From: Salinispira sp.
Lineage (GTDB): Bacteria; Spirochaetota; Spirochaetia; DSM-27196; Salinispiraceae
Length of the DNA stretch: 64,000 bases
NCBI GenBank assembly: GCA_965226555.1
Contig: CBDDDG010000022.1
Coordinates: 228,528 to 292,527, forward strand
Direction of reading: 5' to 3'
Below the pieces are notes generated by a model. It searched no databases. It saw only the letters and a list, made by a program, of their open reading frames with translations, and was not told the origin of the DNA. Positions 52,891 through 63,588 of this stretch are shown in pieces. Each line of letters starts with the position of its first letter. Position 1 is the stretch's first letter. A program made the position numbers and the translations under genes.

Positions 52891-52979
52891 GTTATTTTTA
52901 ACGCTATCTTGAGCATATATAACGCTTCAAGTTGATTTCAGTACCGGAAAAGGCTATTATACATGAGAGGAGACAGACA

Positions 52980-53798
52980 ATGGCAGAACTAACCGTACAA
53001 GAAATTAAAGACATGATGGCAGAAACGGCAGAGGCCCAAAGGGAGTCCCACAAGGAGGCTGAGCGTCGAGGGAAGGAACTTGACCTTCGAATGGAAAAAG
53101 ACAGACAAGAGGCTAAGCGTCGAGAGAAGGAGGCTAAGCGTCGAGGGAAGGAACTTGACCTTCGAATGGAAAAAGACAGACAAGAGGCTAAGCGTCGAGA
53201 GAAGGAGGCTGAGCGTCGAGGGAAGGAGGCTGAGCGTCGAGGGAAGGAAATTGACCTCCAAATGAAGGAAACCGACCGTCGAATGAAGGAAACCGACCGC
53301 CGAATGGAAGAGTCCCGACTGGAGTCTCGGCGTCGAGAGAAGGAAACCGACCGCAGGCTAAAAAAGCTCGATGAACTCTTTACCTCCCAGTGGGGCAAGC
53401 TGATTGAGAGCTTGGTGGAGGGCGACTTGGTAAAGTTGCTCAAGATGAGAGGAATTACCGTAGACAAAACTTTGGTTAGAAGAGAATATATAGAAGTTCC
53501 GGGAAAACCGCTTGCCGAGTTTGATCTTATTGCCTGCAACGGCAATGAAACGGTGGTAATTGAAGTCAAAACCACTCTCAGGGTAGAAGATGTGGATCAT
53601 TTTCTCAAGAGCATGAAACTATTTCGAACAGCCATGCCCCGCTTTCAAAACGATATTATTTACGGGGGTGTTGCCTACATAAATGTTGTTGGATCGGCCG
53701 ATAAATACGCTCAAAAAAAGAAGCTCTTTGCCATTAAAGCCACGGGTTCCAGTGCCTCCATTATCAACGCCGAAGACTTTGAACCGCAGACATTTTAA
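52980..53798 (+). CDS. Coiled-coil repeat protein with C-terminal PD-(D/E)XK-type domain (DUF3782-like)
   Basis: SD gaggag; 81-bp and 21-bp tandem repeats; WGKLIESLV and EFDLIA...VIEVK. Confidence 0.75.
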   Translation: MAELTVQEIKDMMAETAEAQRESHKEAERRGKELDLRMEKDRQEAKRREKEAKRRGKELDLRMEKDRQEAKRREKEAERRGKEAERRGKEIDLQMKETDRRMKETDRRMEESRLESRRREKETDRRLKKLDELFTSQWGKLIESLVEGDLVKLLKMRGITVDKTLVRREYIEVPGKPLAEFDLIACNGNETVVIEVKTTLRVEDVDHFLKSMKLFRTAMPRFQNDIIYGGVAYINVVGSADKYAQKKKLFAIKATGSSASIINAEDFEPQTF

Positions 53799-54098
53799 TT
53801 CAAAGAAAAACCCGCCCCCATTCCCTACGACCAAGGCTACCGCTCCCTGCTGTTCCAACCCGCAATAATGCTCCAATTTCTTCAACGCTTTGTCGGAGGC
53901 GCATGGACAAAGACATGCCCCTCCGCATGTTGGAATACACGAATCTGCTCTACCGGAACATTCACCGCTCCGGCGCAATTCCCGATGACTGCGAGTTGAT
54001 ATTTCTGCCCATTGTATTTTATAATGGAGAGCAAAGGTGGAAGGTGCCCGGGAATGTCAGAAAGAACAAAAGAACCGAGAGGTAAGGATGTAGCAAAA
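53799..54098 (+). pseudogene. Deletion derivative of the Rpn at 35997-37121 (nuclease part)
   Basis: Three blocks match the reverse complement of about 37113-37003, 36846-36688 and 36392-36354. Confidence 0.85.
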
Positions 54099-54311
54099 AT
54101 GTTCAGAATGAATGCGGAAACATTCAGAGCGCGCATTGCGGAGATGGGTCGGCAGGAAGGACTTCAGACAGGTCGCGCTGAGGGGCATATTGAGGAGCGG
54201 AGAAAAAACGCCCGTAGTATGTTTTCCAAAGGATTTTCAGCCCATGACATTCAGGATGTTACCGGGCTGAGCGATGAGGAAATGCGGGCATTGCGGAACG
54301 GATCGCATTAA
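54099..54311 (+). CDS. 70-aa chimaeric Rpn C-terminal (RpnS-like) protein
   Basis: gagaggtaagga upstream of the ATG; first half matches 36353 downward, second half matches 25270-25401. Confidence 0.6.
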   Translation: MFRMNAETFRARIAEMGRQEGLQTGRAEGHIEERRKNARSMFSKGFSAHDIQDVTGLSDEEMRALRNGSH

Positions 54312-57937: not shown

Positions 57938-58006
57938 TATCCTATGATGATACCATTGTATAGTTGCCAAGTATACGGCGAAAAAAATCTTGAAGTTGGC
58001 GGATAA

Positions 58007-58068
58007 GTTGACACTATTGCAAACAATGGAATATGCTCTCATTGAACTCATGGGGGGTGTTCCATGCC
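58007..58068 (+). promoter_or_regulatory. 62-bp promoter/leader block, copy 1
   Basis: TTGACA-18 bp-TATGCT through to the ATG; 61/62 identical to 59534-59595. Confidence 0.8.
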
Positions 58069-59407
58069 TATTGCGAAACCTGAAAAAACCGATATTGACC
58101 GCAACAAAATTGACAACGCGCTGAACTTTATTCTTAACGAAAAATTTATTACGGTAGTTGAGCACTATAAAGCAGAAACACAAAAAAATGTGGCGAGTGT
58201 TGATGAAGGCCTCAACATTTTCGCAATTATTTCCACGAATAAGCAGATAAACGAAACCTTTCAAAACAAATTACTGCACGCCATTCTCAACCATACCTGC
58301 CAAAACCATTCGGGCAAAAAGATTTTCCTGCACAAATTTATTGAGCATATAAACCAACTGCCAAAGCTGCCAAATAAAGACGAGGAACCCTCAAAAAATA
58401 ATTTAATTACTCCTTCCGATTTTGAAGACGCATGCGTTGAACGAGAAAAATATTATAGAGATAGCACTGGAAAGATGTGGATTGATGTGCTTATAACGAG
58501 CAAGAGACGTAGAAAAGCCATTATTATAGAGAGCAAACTGAATTATGCAAAAGATCAGTATCGCCAAATACCTCGATATTATGATGCAGTAGTAAAACAC
58601 AAGTATGAAGTCGTTCGTATTATCTATATTCCCCGCAATGAGCGAAAAGGCCCTGATCGTACTACATGGACAGAAACAGACAAGGAGAATGTTAATTCAA
58701 AGCTCCAAATTTTCCCAAGCTACGATGAAAAAGACCTTGATCTTGAAAAATGGCTTGTTGCTTGTGAGAAACTATATTCCGAAAACGATCTTATGAATTC
58801 TGGTGAACAAAATAACGAAAGCCGAAACGCGGCGACAATACTTAATCAATATGGCGCTTGGTTACAAGCGGAAAGGAGAAATGATATGGATAAGCAATTA
58901 AAACGAGATTCTTACAAGAAATTGTTGGATGAGAAGGTATCACGATCGCTATTAGAGGGAGTACAGCAGGTAGGCTGTGGTTTGGCAGAGGGTGAGGCAC
59001 ATTTTATTTTTAACGAATGGAAAGATACATTCCGTGACGCAGGTTTTACCGATGAAAGTGAGTTGACTATTGAGAATACCGATGATCATTGGTGGATTTA
59101 CTTTAAGGGATTTATGATAAAGCAAGGCGATAAAACAAGAAAACAAAAATTGGAAGTATGGATACAACTTGCCATGCCAGAAGATTCAGAGTACAGCTAC
59201 CGAGTATTTGTGGCTGCGAGTAATGGCACTCAAAAGGATTTTAAGAAGTTAATTCATACGATTAGGAAAAATAAAGATGAATGGTCTGACGATGGTTGGT
59301 CATTTTACCACGATATCTCCCGCGGCGAATCCCTTAAAGCCGAGCAAGAAGAACTTGAAGAGTGTCTTAAGAATCTCCTCAATAAACTGAAGCCCTTTAA
59401 GGCATAG
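58064..59407 (+). CDS. PD-(D/E)XK nuclease superfamily protein (PDDEXK_4-like), paralogue 1
   Basis: VERE..WIDVLI...AIIIESK..AKDQ..QIPRY. Confidence 0.85.
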   Translation: MPIAKPEKTDIDRNKIDNALNFILNEKFITVVEHYKAETQKNVASVDEGLNIFAIISTNKQINETFQNKLLHAILNHTCQNHSGKKIFLHKFIEHINQLPKLPNKDEEPSKNNLITPSDFEDACVEREKYYRDSTGKMWIDVLITSKRRRKAIIIESKLNYAKDQYRQIPRYYDAVVKHKYEVVRIIYIPRNERKGPDRTTWTETDKENVNSKLQIFPSYDEKDLDLEKWLVACEKLYSENDLMNSGEQNNESRNAATILNQYGAWLQAERRNDMDKQLKRDSYKKLLDEKVSRSLLEGVQQVGCGLAEGEAHFIFNEWKDTFRDAGFTDESELTIENTDDHWWIYFKGFMIKQGDKTRKQKLEVWIQLAMPEDSEYSYRVFVAASNGTQKDFKKLIHTIRKNKDEWSDDGWSFYHDISRGESLKAEQEELEECLKNLLNKLKPFKA

Positions 59408-59480
59408 AAACTTTTGCATTGATAAAGTTTTTCCTTAGGCAAAACTTTCTATACCTTGAGAGAAGCAAGAATATAGTGAG
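59407..59480 (-). mobile_element. Truncated hairpin element between the two nuclease paralogues
   Basis: aaactttctataccttgagagaagcaagaatatag matches 24896-24930. Confidence 0.75.
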
Positions 59481-59533
59481 AGGGCAGGGAGGTGATGCAC
59501 TTATGGTTGAATTTACCCGAATTGGCGGCGGGG

Positions 59534-59595
59534 GTTGACACTATTGCAAACAATGAAATATGCTCTCATTGAACTCATGGGGGGTGTTCCATGCC
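59534..59595 (+). promoter_or_regulatory. 62-bp promoter/leader block, copy 2
   Basis: Direct repeat of 58007-58068. Confidence 0.8.
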
Positions 59596-60847
59596 GACAA
59601 ATATTGCTGATGTTACAGCGAAATCTGATAGCAACATTAATGCTGCCATTACAATAATACGCGCTGCGAAAGCTGCCATCGAAGCCACTGCCAGCGATAC
59701 GAGATACAATGTTTTTGAGACATTGAATATGAAAGAAACGCAGCATTCGCACATGATTCATGGACTGCTTTGTTATAACAAGAATTATTTTCTCCCGAAG
59801 TTCATTGATCACATAAACACATTGAAAAACAAAAATGGAAACAGCCTCAATCTACGTCCATCTGATTTTACGGATGCGCGCGTTGAACGAGAAACGAATC
59901 GTATTGATGTGCTCATAACAGACAGAAAGAGCAGAAAAGCCATTATTATTGAGAATAAACTGAAGGGAGCGAAAGATCTGCTCCGCCAAATACCTCGGTA
60001 TTATGATGCAGTAGTAGACGACGGTTACAAAGTTGTTGGCGTTATCTATATTCCTCCCAATAAGGAAAAAAAGCCTACTTATGCTGGTTGGAAAGATGAA
60101 GACAAAAAGTCCATTAATTCAAAGCTCCGAATTTTTCCGGGTTACGATGAACAGGGTCCCGATCTTGAAAAGTGGCTTGCGGACTGTGAAGCATCGTATT
60201 CAAATGACGATCTTTCACATGTCGACAACCAGAATGTGAAAGCAATACTTACGCAATATAGAGATTATTTTCGACATACGGAGGATATGTACATGGAAGC
60301 AATGCCAAAATTTTACGAACGTTTACGGGCCGAAAAAGTGTCGGTAAAAGATATGACGGACGCTCATAATATGCTGGGTAATAATTTAGGAAAGTATGTC
60401 GCACAGTCCATTTTTGAGAAATGGAAACCCCAGTTTTGTGAAATTGGGCTTGCGGCTGACTCAAAATTTGAAACCGAGATAGATAGCAAAGGGTGGTGGG
60501 TTTTCTTCCCCGGTCTTCGGGTGGGGGTGAAGCAGGACGATGGAACATCAACAATTCTGAAATTAAAAATAGGAGTATGGGTCAATATACCAAAACATCC
60601 AACATTCAATTACCGATATCAAGTTCGTATAGAGCAGGAGTCCTCCAAAGGCGATGCTCGGAATATGACAAAGATGTGTTCAATGTTTATTGATGAAGAA
60701 ATTCGGAATGAAAAATATAACGGCAATTATAGTGACTGGTGGTTTGAACAATGTATTATTGGAGGCGACTCCCTTGAAGCCGATGAACGAGAGCTTTCCG
60801 ATTATCTCACATATCTCCTCAAAAAACTGAAGCCCCTGAGGGCATAA
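59591..60847 (+). CDS. PD-(D/E)XK nuclease superfamily protein (PDDEXK_4-like), paralogue 2
   Basis: ETQHS, VERE..RIDVLI...AIIIENK..AKD...QIPRY. Confidence 0.85.
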   Translation: MPTNIADVTAKSDSNINAAITIIRAAKAAIEATASDTRYNVFETLNMKETQHSHMIHGLLCYNKNYFLPKFIDHINTLKNKNGNSLNLRPSDFTDARVERETNRIDVLITDRKSRKAIIIENKLKGAKDLLRQIPRYYDAVVDDGYKVVGVIYIPPNKEKKPTYAGWKDEDKKSINSKLRIFPGYDEQGPDLEKWLADCEASYSNDDLSHVDNQNVKAILTQYRDYFRHTEDMYMEAMPKFYERLRAEKVSVKDMTDAHNMLGNNLGKYVAQSIFEKWKPQFCEIGLAADSKFETEIDSKGWWVFFPGLRVGVKQDDGTSTILKLKIGVWVNIPKHPTFNYRYQVRIEQESSKGDARNMTKMCSMFIDEEIRNEKYNGNYSDWWFEQCIIGGDSLEADERELSDYLTYLLKKLKPLRA

Positions 60848-60918
60848 TTATTCTCATACATCGCAATGTCAGGGAAATTGAGCATTGGCCGACCGGAATT
60901 ATGGTATAATATATTCAT

Positions 60919-62073
60919 ATGACAAGAGTATCTGACCATGTACAGCTGAATCATGACATTCTCAAACAGTGCCGGGAACAGATGGGTCTGACATTGGAAA
61001 TGGTTAAAGGTAAGATTAAAAAAATTGAGAAAATTGAATGTAATGAAATACGCCCCACATACAAACAGTTGGATGAACTGTCGAATTTATATCAGGTGCC
61101 GCGATGGGTATTTATTTCTCAGGAAATACCAGAGGAATATCAATTTAAACAAAAACCGTCATTTAGAATATTCAAAGATTCTCCGGTATTTCGAGATACA
61201 TCAATTCGTACTTTAATACTTCGTGTAGAACAATACCGGAACTTATACCTTGAGTTGAGACAGGATCTGGATGATCCGCTTGAACCCTTTATGAGGCCAA
61301 GTATTAATAATATTGATAATATTCCTGATGTTGTAAAAACTGTACAGAAGTGGTTATCCCTATCATCCAACTACATTGATTCAGAAACCTATCCCGATTT
61401 TTCTATACTGAGAGATAGACTAGAGCAAAGGGGTATTTTCATATTCCTGACCAGCAAGTATAAGGGGTGGTCACATTGCAACATATTTCGCGGATTAACT
61501 ATTATTGATGACAAAATGCCAATTATTATCATTAACGATGCCGACAGTAAACGTGCCCAATCGTTTACATTGATGCATGAGCTGGGACATATTCTCAGGA
61601 ATGAGATGAATATTGATAGTGAAGATAATGATCGGCAGACAGATGATCCTGAAATAGAAAAATGGTGTGATCACTTCTCTGGTGAATTTCTCATGCCTTC
61701 TTCCTCTTCTATTTGGAATTCAGTAGATGGATATGAGTTATCTGATATAAAAAAAATGGCAAAACGATTCAAGGTTAGCCCACATGCCTGTTTAGTCCGA
61801 GTTCATATTTTAAACAAAATTAATCAGACCACATATAATGAGCTGGTAAAACACCTGAACAATGAATACGAGAACCTCCGGGTAAAACGTAAACAAAGTA
61901 AAGGAGGACCTCAAAGAGACAGAGTGAAGGAAATATCCACTCAATTTGGAGGTGCTTTTGTACACACAGTTTTAACTGCCTGGCACAATCAAGAAATAAC
62001 TTTGTATAAGGTAGCTAAGCTATTTGATTTAAAGCGTCCGCAGCAGGTATTGGAACTGGATAAACGTGAATAA
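60919..62073 (+). CDS. XRE-HTH plus ImmA/IrrE (DUF955) metallopeptidase
   Basis: N-terminal HTH; FTLMHELGH (HExxH); E.WCDHFSGEFLMP. Confidence 0.9.
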   Translation: MTRVSDHVQLNHDILKQCREQMGLTLEMVKGKIKKIEKIECNEIRPTYKQLDELSNLYQVPRWVFISQEIPEEYQFKQKPSFRIFKDSPVFRDTSIRTLILRVEQYRNLYLELRQDLDDPLEPFMRPSINNIDNIPDVVKTVQKWLSLSSNYIDSETYPDFSILRDRLEQRGIFIFLTSKYKGWSHCNIFRGLTIIDDKMPIIIINDADSKRAQSFTLMHELGHILRNEMNIDSEDNDRQTDDPEIEKWCDHFSGEFLMPSSSSIWNSVDGYELSDIKKMAKRFKVSPHACLVRVHILNKINQTTYNELVKHLNNEYENLRVKRKQSKGGPQRDRVKEISTQFGGAFVHTVLTAWHNQEITLYKVAKLFDLKRPQQVLELDKRE

Positions 62074-62578
62074 ACTGAGAAAATTCTGCTTGGATGCTAA
62101 TATTTTTATGACTGCGTGGTATATTACATATCCAAAAGATGTATTTTCTGAGGTGTGGAATGATCTGGCTAAAGTGCGAGACCAATTAATCATAATCTCG
62201 CCAATTTTTGATGAAATTGAACCTTATGCAAGTACAGACAAGATAAAACCGAGGAATGAGCTTGAGGATAAGTATCCACTACGTTTATGGCTGGAAAGAA
62301 ATAATTTTAACAGTGTAGATATTGAAACATCAATAAAAGATGAAGCAATTGATCTGGAGCGCAAATATGAAATTGAAGATAGAGGTAAGGGAGTAAACAA
62401 AAATGATATTTTACTGATTACATATGCCAGAAAAAATAAATATTGTGTTGTTACTTTTGAATCTAAACAACTCCAACCGCCCACAGAAAAGAAAAACTAT
62501 AAAATTCCTTTAGTATGTGAAATTGAAAAAGTCGATTGTATGAGCTTTGTTGAAATGCTTCGTGAACTCAAGAAATAA
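62066..62578 (+). CDS. PIN-domain protein (DUF4411-like)
   Basis: LDANIF, YP.DVF..VW, D..LI..A, VVTFE and KIP.VC; overlaps the upstream gene by 8 bp. Confidence 0.85.
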   Translation: MNKLRKFCLDANIFMTAWYITYPKDVFSEVWNDLAKVRDQLIIISPIFDEIEPYASTDKIKPRNELEDKYPLRLWLERNNFNSVDIETSIKDEAIDLERKYEIEDRGKGVNKNDILLITYARKNKYCVVTFESKQLQPPTEKKNYKIPLVCEIEKVDCMSFVEMLRELKK

Positions 62579-62589
62579 CGATAGAAACT

Positions 62590-63588
62590 TTACCCATGCA
62601 AAATAATTTCACCGCTGCTGTTAAATAGGCGCAGTCCCAATCGCTCACATTCTATTCTGCTGTAATCGTTTGGGATATCGGATTCGCTGTTTTTGCTGAG
62701 AAAGAGCAGGCCAAGTTCGTTTCCTGCGCCGCTTCCCTTCCATGCGGCAGGTTCATAGAAGGCGCTGGGAGGCGACAGCCAGCTTTCAACACCGATCTGC
62801 TCGCCCAGTTCATTGGAGAGAAGACGAAGTTGGGTAATGTTGCGGAAAAAATGTTCTTCAGTGCTGCTTTTTTCAAAGATATTCACTAATTTCTGAGAGC
62901 GGGTAAACATATCCGCTGCCTTTTCCCCGGATATCTTCTTCCATTCCTGATAATTCTGAACAGCTTCACGGCTGTCGATTTCATGCGGACCTGAAAACGC
63001 ATATGTTCTGGCAGAAAAAAGGGGGTGATCCTCTCTGAGCGGCGACCAGCGCGGTATTTTCCCCCCAGTGAACATACCTGCGGCGCCGTAACAGCTTGTG
63101 AAAATATCGTATCCGCTCCCCTGTTTTCCCTGAGCATGCCGATGAGCTTCAAGAGCGGCTCTGGCAATTATCGCCCTGTTCAATGTGTTTTTCTCTATGC
63201 TCGAGGCAAGCATTAATCCTGCAAGGAGAACTGTTGCGGCAGCAGATGCTCCGAGTCCGAGTTTCCGCCCGTCCGAGAAGAATTCGACCGTGTCAATTTC
63301 TACCTCAAGAGATGGTGATTCATGCCCCATGTTCTTCAGGTATTGGATGAGCGAATGGTACACCCGTATAATAAACGGAAAGCGTGTGTGGGTCATGTTA
63401 GTGTTCAGGCTGATCCGCCCCGCATCTGTTTTTACATGAATGCAGCTGCCACCGGAAGAGGGCTGCGACCTCCCTCGGGCAAGGGAATTTGTTGCCATGC
63501 CGATGCCGATGCCCCTATCTTCCAGTATCATATATTCGCCGCAGATCAGCAGATTTCCGGGAACACAGGCGGTAATTTCATTGCGCAT
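62590..63588 (-). CDS. mvaK2: Phosphomevalonate kinase
   Basis: VPGNLLICGEY, KLGLGASAA, QGKQGSGYDI and KGSGAG. Confidence 0.85.
   Translation of the reverse strand: MRNEITACVPGNLLICGEYMILEDRGIGIGMATNSLARGRSQPSSGGSCIHVKTDAGRISLNTNMTHTRFPFIIRVYHSLIQYLKNMGHESPSLEVEIDTVEFFSDGRKLGLGASAAATVLLAGLMLASSIEKNTLNRAIIARAALEAHRHAQGKQGSGYDIFTSCYGAAGMFTGGKIPRWSPLREDHPLFSARTYAFSGPHEIDSREAVQNYQEWKKISGEKAADMFTRSQKLVNIFEKSSTEEHFFRNITQLRLLSNELGEQIGVESWLSPPSAFYEPAAWKGSGAGNELGLLFLSKNSESDIPNDYSRIECERLGLRLFNSSGEIILHG

Follow-up and report, generated by a model that had tools for sequence, protein, structure and literature searches.

Internal starts in PF14281/PDC-S26 nuclease genes suggest a candidate gene-within-gene toxin–antitoxin system

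Can a bacterial nuclease gene carry, within its own reading frame, a second gene whose product holds the nuclease in check? This question is raised by two tandem genes, here called A and B, in a 64,000-nucleotide (nt) stretch of a Salinispira sp. genome (contig CBDDDG010000022.1, positions 228,528 to 292,527; hereafter the window, whose numbering is used throughout). Gene A (58064..59407, + strand) and gene B (59591..60847, +) encode full-length products (L) of 447 and 418 amino acids (aa), respectively, that are 41% identical. Each also contains a nested in-frame open reading frame (ORF) with a Shine-Dalgarno sequence (SD) of its own, at 58886..59407 (+, 173 aa) in A and at 60293..60847 (+, 184 aa) in B, from which a short C-terminal product (S) is predicted. 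We hold it very probable that this internal start is real. By analogy with known nested genes, and with somewhat better than even confidence, we favor the view that S is the antitoxin of a toxic anti-phage nuclease L, i.e. that A and B are gene-within-gene toxin–antitoxin (TA) systems.

SD strength was taken as the duplex energy with the genome's own 16S tail. In gene A the internal SD GAAAGGAG (58871..58878, +; −13.4 kcal/mol) is followed after 7 nt by the ATG at 58886, and in gene B GGAGG (60280..60284, +; −9.5 kcal/mol) stands 8 nt before the ATG at 60293. Both ATGs lie 12 codons past the Tyr of the ILxQY motif at the end of the nuclease domain (+12 after QY), and each of these SDs is the strongest among the internal in-frame ATGs of its own gene; genome-wide, 0.18% of 10,836 internal ATGs reach −13 kcal/mol and 2.8% reach −9 kcal/mol. 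The SD core is read in different frames in the two genes (AGG AGA in A, ACG GAG GAT in B) and is therefore not a by-product of one peptide. The original prediction, made from the letters of the window, had claimed a strong SD and in-frame ATG at the same position in both paralogues, kept despite turnover of the local peptide, and both points stand. It had also given the full-length genes only a GGGGGG SD; this needs correcting, as the main-start site, at −12.6 kcal/mol, is not weak. An extra in-frame ATG in gene B at 60287 lies only 2 nt past the SD, too near to it, so that 60293 is the start that fits. Gapped alignments pointed to M233 (60287) as the family Met of B, a candidate that we rejected because anchoring on QY puts M235 (60293) at +12.

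The source genome holds six paralogues including A and B, and the start is kept in all of them, five times at +12 and once at +8. Three close paralogues elsewhere in the genome carry AGGAGG or GGGAGG at the same site (−10.8 to −11.2 kcal/mol), and it is the sixth, distant one that has its SD-ATG at +8 (−10.3 kcal/mol). Local RNA folding at the internal ribosome-binding site (RBS) revealed no consistent openness among five paralogues, and a word-index search for homologues returned nothing beyond the source genome's own five paralogues. In contigs from two DNA runs of one sample, perhaps the source sample, the stretch is covered piecewise and the internal starts are identical.

Two side observations concern the paralogues' surroundings. 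One of them (C10:477652, −) begins about 170 nt beyond the 3' end of a 16S rRNA gene, unusual surroundings for a nuclease. Two short ORFs of 75 and 25 aa (C10:7138 and C18:104817, both −) share the RBS and first dozen residues of the nuclease paralogues and then diverge into unrelated sequence, which suggests a common leader cassette that is shuffled among genes; the sequence after the switch has what we take to be a NYN/PIN-like look.

The nuclease itself belongs to a recognizable family. Gene B's product matches PF14281 (PDDEXK_4) over residues 39-223 (E 4e-14, 53.4 bits against a cut-off of 22.3), and A reaches 52.6 bits (E 6e-14), over the curated cut-off, in a six-frame search; hmmscan of protein A returned no Pfam family at E≤1. 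The 413-position PADLOC model for PDC-S26 (PDLC04983) is matched over positions 8-371 by A (E 2.5e-19) and 19-360 by B (E 1.6e-21), both of them distant members, judged here by E-value rather than by PADLOC's rule thresholds. PDC-S26 models also matched 9/9 other family members tested, with other members reaching E 1e-116, and 1,256 relatives are found at E≤0.001 among 50%-identity representatives. Product A consists of an N-terminal helix, a PD-(D/E)XK domain (D141, E156, K158), a helical linker and a variable alpha/beta C-terminal domain. Product B has a helix (5-33), the PF14281 nuclease (39-223; D106, E121, K123), helices at 230-283, a beta-rich domain (294-390) and a closing C-terminal helix. 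The three catalytic residues (B numbering) are invariant across 137 aligned homologues, namely those of 340-460 aa out of 153. The nuclease model aligns with BspD6I, Cap4, Hna and McrC at Z 5.6-7.1, indicating a restriction-endonuclease-like fold; Foldseek gave no match at E≤0.001, VIA-align no structure at Z 8 or more, and a PDB sequence search no solved relative. The original call of a PDDEXK_4-like nuclease lacking Rpn motifs and repeats is confirmed by these matches, by the lack of any Rpn profile in A or B (Pfam, E≤1) or in 16 family members (NCBIfam, E≤0.01), and by the lack of tandem repeats inside 58064-60847. We take PF04754 and PF12784 to be the Rpn-type nuclease profiles.

From 131 loci we obtained 114 non-identical ORFs spanning the boundary, 83 of them under 70% identity to one another and 46 under 50%. 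At the protein level 118/137 aligned sequences have Met at the boundary, and a second Met some 27-28 codons downstream is 71-80% conserved without a start signal (SD in 0/60). Because of this second Met we discarded Met conservation alone as evidence. An ATG lies 10-17 codons after the QY Tyr in 78/83 genes (at exactly +12 in 63) and in 41/46 of those under 50% identity, against about 10% expected from the genes' own ATG rate.

The window's phylum, Spirochaetota, is also indicated by a Brachyspira-named homologue, by low-GC relatives in that phylum and by a 16S signature. Within it an SD of −6 kcal/mol or stronger precedes 21/22 boundary ATGs versus 6/91 other internal ATGs, where four of the 22 come from source genome paralogues and the best ATG was taken if several were in range; in the 50%-identity set the counts are 16/17 versus 6/73. 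All three frames are represented among the SD cores (11, 7 and 3 cases), which overlie many different peptides and shift along with the ATG when the latter lies at +13 to +17. Other PF14281 clades of the phylum have an SD-start in 24/28 ORFs that reach the boundary (six of these loci had been counted above and 11 are close kin; two truncated ORFs were excluded). SD and ATG are thus enriched at this boundary among PF14281-like homologues, which the original prediction had named among its checks. Codon choice points the same way: the Gly codon at −4 is GGA in 22/23 genes, unsorted by SD, where 8.5 would be expected from each gene's own usage (nominal P 4e-10), and GGA use at 12 other Gly columns is as expected.

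Hosts that make little use of SDs show a different signal at the same place. Among 35 no-SD genes from such hosts, A occupies −13 in 86%, −12 in 97%, −11 in 89%, −6 in 91% and −3 in 86%; initiation in Flavobacterium johnsoniae is driven by the same positions (PMC6847099). All four Bacteroidota determinants (A-13, A-12, A-6 and A-3) are present at 22/51 non-spirochaete boundary ATGs versus 6/246 other ATGs and 0/48 at the control Met. Leu −5 is TTA or CTA in 32/47 cases (20.6 expected) and Ile −1 is ATT in 22/25 (11.2 expected). Taken together, these comparisons indicate that the initiation signal is under selection at the nucleotide level.

Several observations weigh against this account of the start or against its functional interpretation, and we gather them here. 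Five of the 83 homologues lack a boundary ATG. Seven named Pseudomonadota and Campylobacterota records keep the ATG (+14 to +17), but an SD of −6 or stronger is present in Massilia alone; among five named Bacteroidota records, four have the ATG at +12 to +18 and Bacteroides ovatus has none at +10 to +18. (Cetobacterium has a good SD, −8.2, and five further named records were excluded because the motif pattern missed the catalytic ExK.) A Leu column upstream, 224, has a similar TTA/CTA excess, so that the effect at Leu −5 is at least partly regional A/T richness. The homologues are related, and P values are therefore overstated. No conserved position of an internal promoter motif was found among 68 homologues, and the one 9-of-12 promoter-like site in the region (60222-60249) is at chance level. 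No orphan S gene turned up in the loci or the genome with a profile of low sensitivity that missed even the C-terminal part of A. We did not count five short predicted proteins beginning at the boundary Met, as their contigs are only 1.3-4.6 kb long and the genes may be cut.

A further complication is that 11 metagenome loci carry an internal SD (mostly GG-x-x-M) on contigs without SDs at other starts (L022, L039, L049, L054, L063, L069, L071, L073, L077, L078 and L090, with SDs of GGAGG type maintained under synonymous constraint). SDs of −7 or stronger occur at 0/41 starts around these loci versus 54% of 48 in spirochaete loci, so the rule that the signal follows the host is not clean. GGA was used in 14/15 cases in the loci on SD-poor contigs, and in the 11 loci this preference may be due to A-richness and not to SD pairing, or the hosts may not be Bacteroidia; the neighbor gene in L049 carries a Bacteroidota secretion tail. 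Bacteroidia ribosomes disregard SDs unless bS21 is missing (PMC13000453), and we might speculate that the internal SD start in these loci responds to the state of the ribosome. On a quick tree the SD label changes 12 times and the no-SD label six times, with 36/80 inner branches open.

What would the internal start produce? The C-terminal parts of A and B are homologous (tblastn, 31% identity, E 6e-17) and share 28-29% identity versus 52% in the nuclease, in agreement with the original description of related domains that have diverged more than the core. Family-wide, identity falls from 41% in the nuclease to 24% in the helices of S and 18% in its beta domain. Four close paralogues are mosaic, and in the beta domain nonsynonymous divergence (pN) lies above synonymous divergence (pS) in 2/6 pairs; such a fast-evolving, shuffled domain would fit one engaged in an arms race. 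In the model of B (predicted local distance difference test, pLDDT, 86) the internal start lies at the head of the three helices (230-283), and S of B is predicted to fold alone into an alpha/beta structure (pLDDT 90). Its fold resembles Atg10, Pfu 1yb3, the T4 MotA C-terminal domain and YbjN-like DR1245 at Z 5.5-7.1, none of which assigns a function, and no shared Pfam family was found among 59 S sequences. A DUF4268 gene beside the Cetobacterium copy was considered as a relative of S and rejected, as hhalign of S to the DUF4268 protein gave 1.1%, i.e. no detectable relationship.

Structure prediction of L together with S, both from gene B, scored 0.67 versus 0.00 for the best control, a mark reached by 116/157 solved complexes and 2/215 mismatched pairs, counts that are only rough for the alignments used. 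Runs agreed in at least 94% of contacts, with a partner pLDDT of at least 78. The predicted contacts of S residues 3-39, the second conserved Met included, are mainly with L residues 12-30 and 230-273; the second of these two segments holds the copy of the S contact helices that L itself carries. These models support the binding of S to full-length L. They would further suggest that the predicted interface is the surface of an L-L dimer for which S competes; at the same time, S being a piece of L, the interface may simply be the signal of an L-L dimer, and the models are silent on inhibition.

Our preferred mechanism, S as antitoxin, would run as follows. The internal start would yield a separate C-terminal protein S, likely beside full-length L, a DNA nuclease whose active form is likely dimeric. 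The first three helices of S are predicted to lie against L's N-terminal and linker helices, where S would take the place of one L protomer at the dimer surface and likely keep L off, the L:S pair being without the second nuclease domain presumably needed for efficient cutting. Least certain are the last steps, in which infection would remove S, either by translation shut-off or through a phage protein that binds the beta domain, and freed L would cut DNA and abort the infection. Of the gene-within-gene system in a second nuclease family that was originally proposed, the internal start is upheld by ATG position, host-suited signals and synonymous constraint, and the binding of S to L by prediction; the role as toxin and antitoxin is still conjectural.

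Other roles for S are less probable. The best placed of them, which we nonetheless regard as unlikely, is that S negatively tunes a restriction-like L that is harmless to the host and reads modified or foreign DNA via the variable domain, S titrating assembly like McrBS. The nuclease domain does align with restriction-type enzymes (BspD6I, Z 7.1, root-mean-square deviation (rmsd) 3.6, 122 residues aligned; McrC, Z 5.6), and the C-terminal domain can be superposed on the DNA-binding C-terminal domain of T4 MotA (Z 6.8-6.9, rmsd 3.8, over about 109 residues). PDC genes were collected from within restriction–modification (RM), BREX and DISARM loci, and McrBS, itself a product of internal initiation, suppresses restriction (PMC12707154). 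However, all of these fold scores are under Z 8, in the range of common arrangements, and a start kept in 78/83 homologues and all six paralogues would fit an obligatory safeguard better than a tuner.

Slightly less likely again, in our estimation, is that S is an activating or structural subunit, such that the working enzyme is L:S. The start-site data and the predicted L:S complex fit this too, and Cas11d from cas10d is a published nested product that is required for activity (10.1101/2023.05.02.539157). Yet S is predicted to sit on a surface made partly of L's own copies of the same helices, which would suggest competition with a second L, and neither a catalytic motif nor a known family was found in S. 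It is improbable that S acts apart from L, whether as a free sensor or as a decoy that takes up phage inhibitors directed against the variable domain. In its favor, no other large part varies as much as the beta domain (18% versus 41% in the nuclease), which is also shuffled among paralogues, and in the ESM Atlas the neighbors of S are separate proteins 178-187 aa long, of which one bears the name DUF4268 (a weak hint with a low recognition score), but the start always lies just before the predicted L-contact helices and not before the beta domain. Finally, that no second protein is made, the Met being structural (a helix start), the upstream bases a product of peptide or codon bias, or the whole a relic of gene fusion, is very improbable: the well-conserved second Met without any start signal and the weak SDs in 6/7 proteobacterial records speak for it, but the synonymous constraint is specific to the boundary site, the SD is found in each of the three frames and shifts with the ATG, the kind of signal differs between SD-using and SD-poor hosts, and a relic would not persist at about 25% protein identity.

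The antitoxin reading draws on the likeness to Rpn (RpnL/RpnS, COG5464; Zhong et al. 2023, 10.1101/2023.05.02.539157; PMC10400941). Like A and B, Rpn is a single PD-(D/E)XK nuclease gene in which an internal RBS and ATG, in frame, precede a C-terminal part that varies (here as a sequence signal only); in both the first helices of S form the interface (a predicted one here), and both come in several paralogues per genome with tandem copies, a patchy spread and defense neighbors. The differences are that A and B belong to PF14281 and match no Rpn profile; that S in their family is 140-200 aa long with an alpha/beta domain, unlike RpnA-S of about 50 aa and three helices; that they lack the four-residue repeats, which are variable in Rpn S; and that Rpn has an internal promoter and an orphan S gene, neither of which was found for the A/B family. 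The predicted A/B-family interface also involves the N-terminal helix of L, as far as sequence and models go.

Among other systems, McrBS/McrBL of McrBC likewise has an internal in-frame start in a defense gene, whose truncated product joins the complex and dampens the nuclease (PMC12707154), but there a GTPase domain withdraws a separate nuclease subunit, whereas the nested product of A and B would come from the nuclease gene itself and lack the catalytic domain. Cas11d, likewise the C-terminal part of a defense protein, is translated from a start inside cas10d and binds to its own full-length protein; it is required for activity, while inhibition is our best reading for A and B. The PADLOC entry PDC-S26 / PF14281 is the same protein family as A and B, catalogued as a one-protein candidate. 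In the full texts searched we found no internal start or second product for PF14281 or PDC-S26, subscription papers and preprint supplements falling mostly outside that scope. PF14281 is listed as of function unknown (PMC3424549).

Support for a defense role is circumstantial and comes from the PDC-S26 match, the neighbors and the mosaic paralogues. PDC systems are candidates, gathered from genes that sit inside BREX, DISARM and type I RM loci (10.1101/2024.01.29.577857), and PDC-S26 is among the frequent defense systems of enterobacterial pipolins (10.1101/2024.05.22.595293). A defense-type neighbor is present in 26/66 loci (11 with RM, abortive infection (Abi), BREX or TA genes, eight with WYL and seven with other conflict-type domains), in a tally that covers 145/220 neighboring ORFs and no random-gene control. 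Family members occur in cultured Vibrio, Chryseobacterium, Segatella, Cetobacterium and two E. coli genomes, as well as on plasmids and viral contigs, and their spread is patchy (32/301 genomes of the phylum and, apart from the source genome, 1/60 closer relatives). Against phage records, tblastn with one member gave no match and with another member one record. A Moellerella plasmid gene (L178:2839-4050) has a chromosomal counterpart of 100% identity in 2/5,426 E. coli genomes, which implies that the transfer was recent and that E. coli already harbors a member of the family. Two loci (L001:3872-6269 and L015:1625-4134) hold two distant PF14281 genes in tandem, and in the former pair the internal start is A-rich in one gene and of SD type in the other. 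Elsewhere (L023:223-6611, and L132-L143) a family member follows a Gp49/HTH toxin-antitoxin pair inside a cluster of prophage head genes.

Genes A and B are each preceded by a copy of the same 62-nt element. The copy before A (58007..58068, +) contains a promoter-like TTGACA-18-TATGCT (58008-58037), a G-rich RBS and the start codon, and the copy before B (59534..59595, +) is 98% identical to it; the promoter-like site has 10/12 consensus matches, and the number of such sites in the window is near chance (13 found versus 9.9 expected). The spacer between the genes (59401-59520) contains an intergenic repeat that occurs in many copies and includes a short inverted repeat; it has 238 blastn matches in the genome, mostly partial, and a summed contig depth of 489 versus about 7 for genes, resembling REP (repetitive extragenic palindromic) or MITE (miniature inverted-repeat transposable element) sequences. 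A 30-mer that resembles this repeat lies at 62581-62610.

Just downstream of gene B (60919-62578), a gene with a helix-turn-helix (HTH) and an IrrE/ImmA metallopeptidase domain (PF06114; PADLOC RmrA and CapP models) overlaps a PIN/DUF4411 gene, and from their domains the pair looks like a TA module. We read the low-GC stretch from about 58000 to 62600 as a small defense island; the genes flanking it are, we presume from their motifs, mevalonate-pathway-like. Upstream, a gene at 52932-53798 carries 21- and 75-nt tandem repeats that specify a charged coiled coil ahead of a nuclease-like domain (a weak AHJR-like match); this nuclease (52977-53795) was considered as a relative of A and B and proved unrelated. 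At 53882-54311 a short ORF beginning at 54012 has QEG-x-QTG-x-AEG-type repeats and an upstream frame contains PIVFYNG, motifs by which the stretch resembles an Rpn-family gene that is broken but retains an intact small C-terminal product.

How far the interpretation of A and B extends to the whole PF14281/PDC-S26 family is a more tentative matter. It is possible, though we would put it below an even chance, that the family is a second, independent family of gene-within-gene anti-phage TA systems in at least five phyla, with a start rewritten to suit each host (SD in spirochaetes and fusobacteria, A-rich in Bacteroidota), a product of 140-200 aa that poisons dimerization by helix swap, and a shuffled beta domain that senses phage and releases the nuclease. 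A commentary on Rpn by Koonin gives as its top open question whether other systems have internal starts that make dominant-negative regulators or whether Rpn is unique (PMC10400984), and the PF14281/PDC-S26 family offers a concrete and widespread test case. The switch between SD and A-rich signals also offers a general means, based on sequence alone, of finding nested genes in other families. Cloning genes of this kind would co-express the likely inhibitor, and their activity could be hidden in defense screens. If true, the proposal would give an uncharacterized PADLOC candidate a mechanism.

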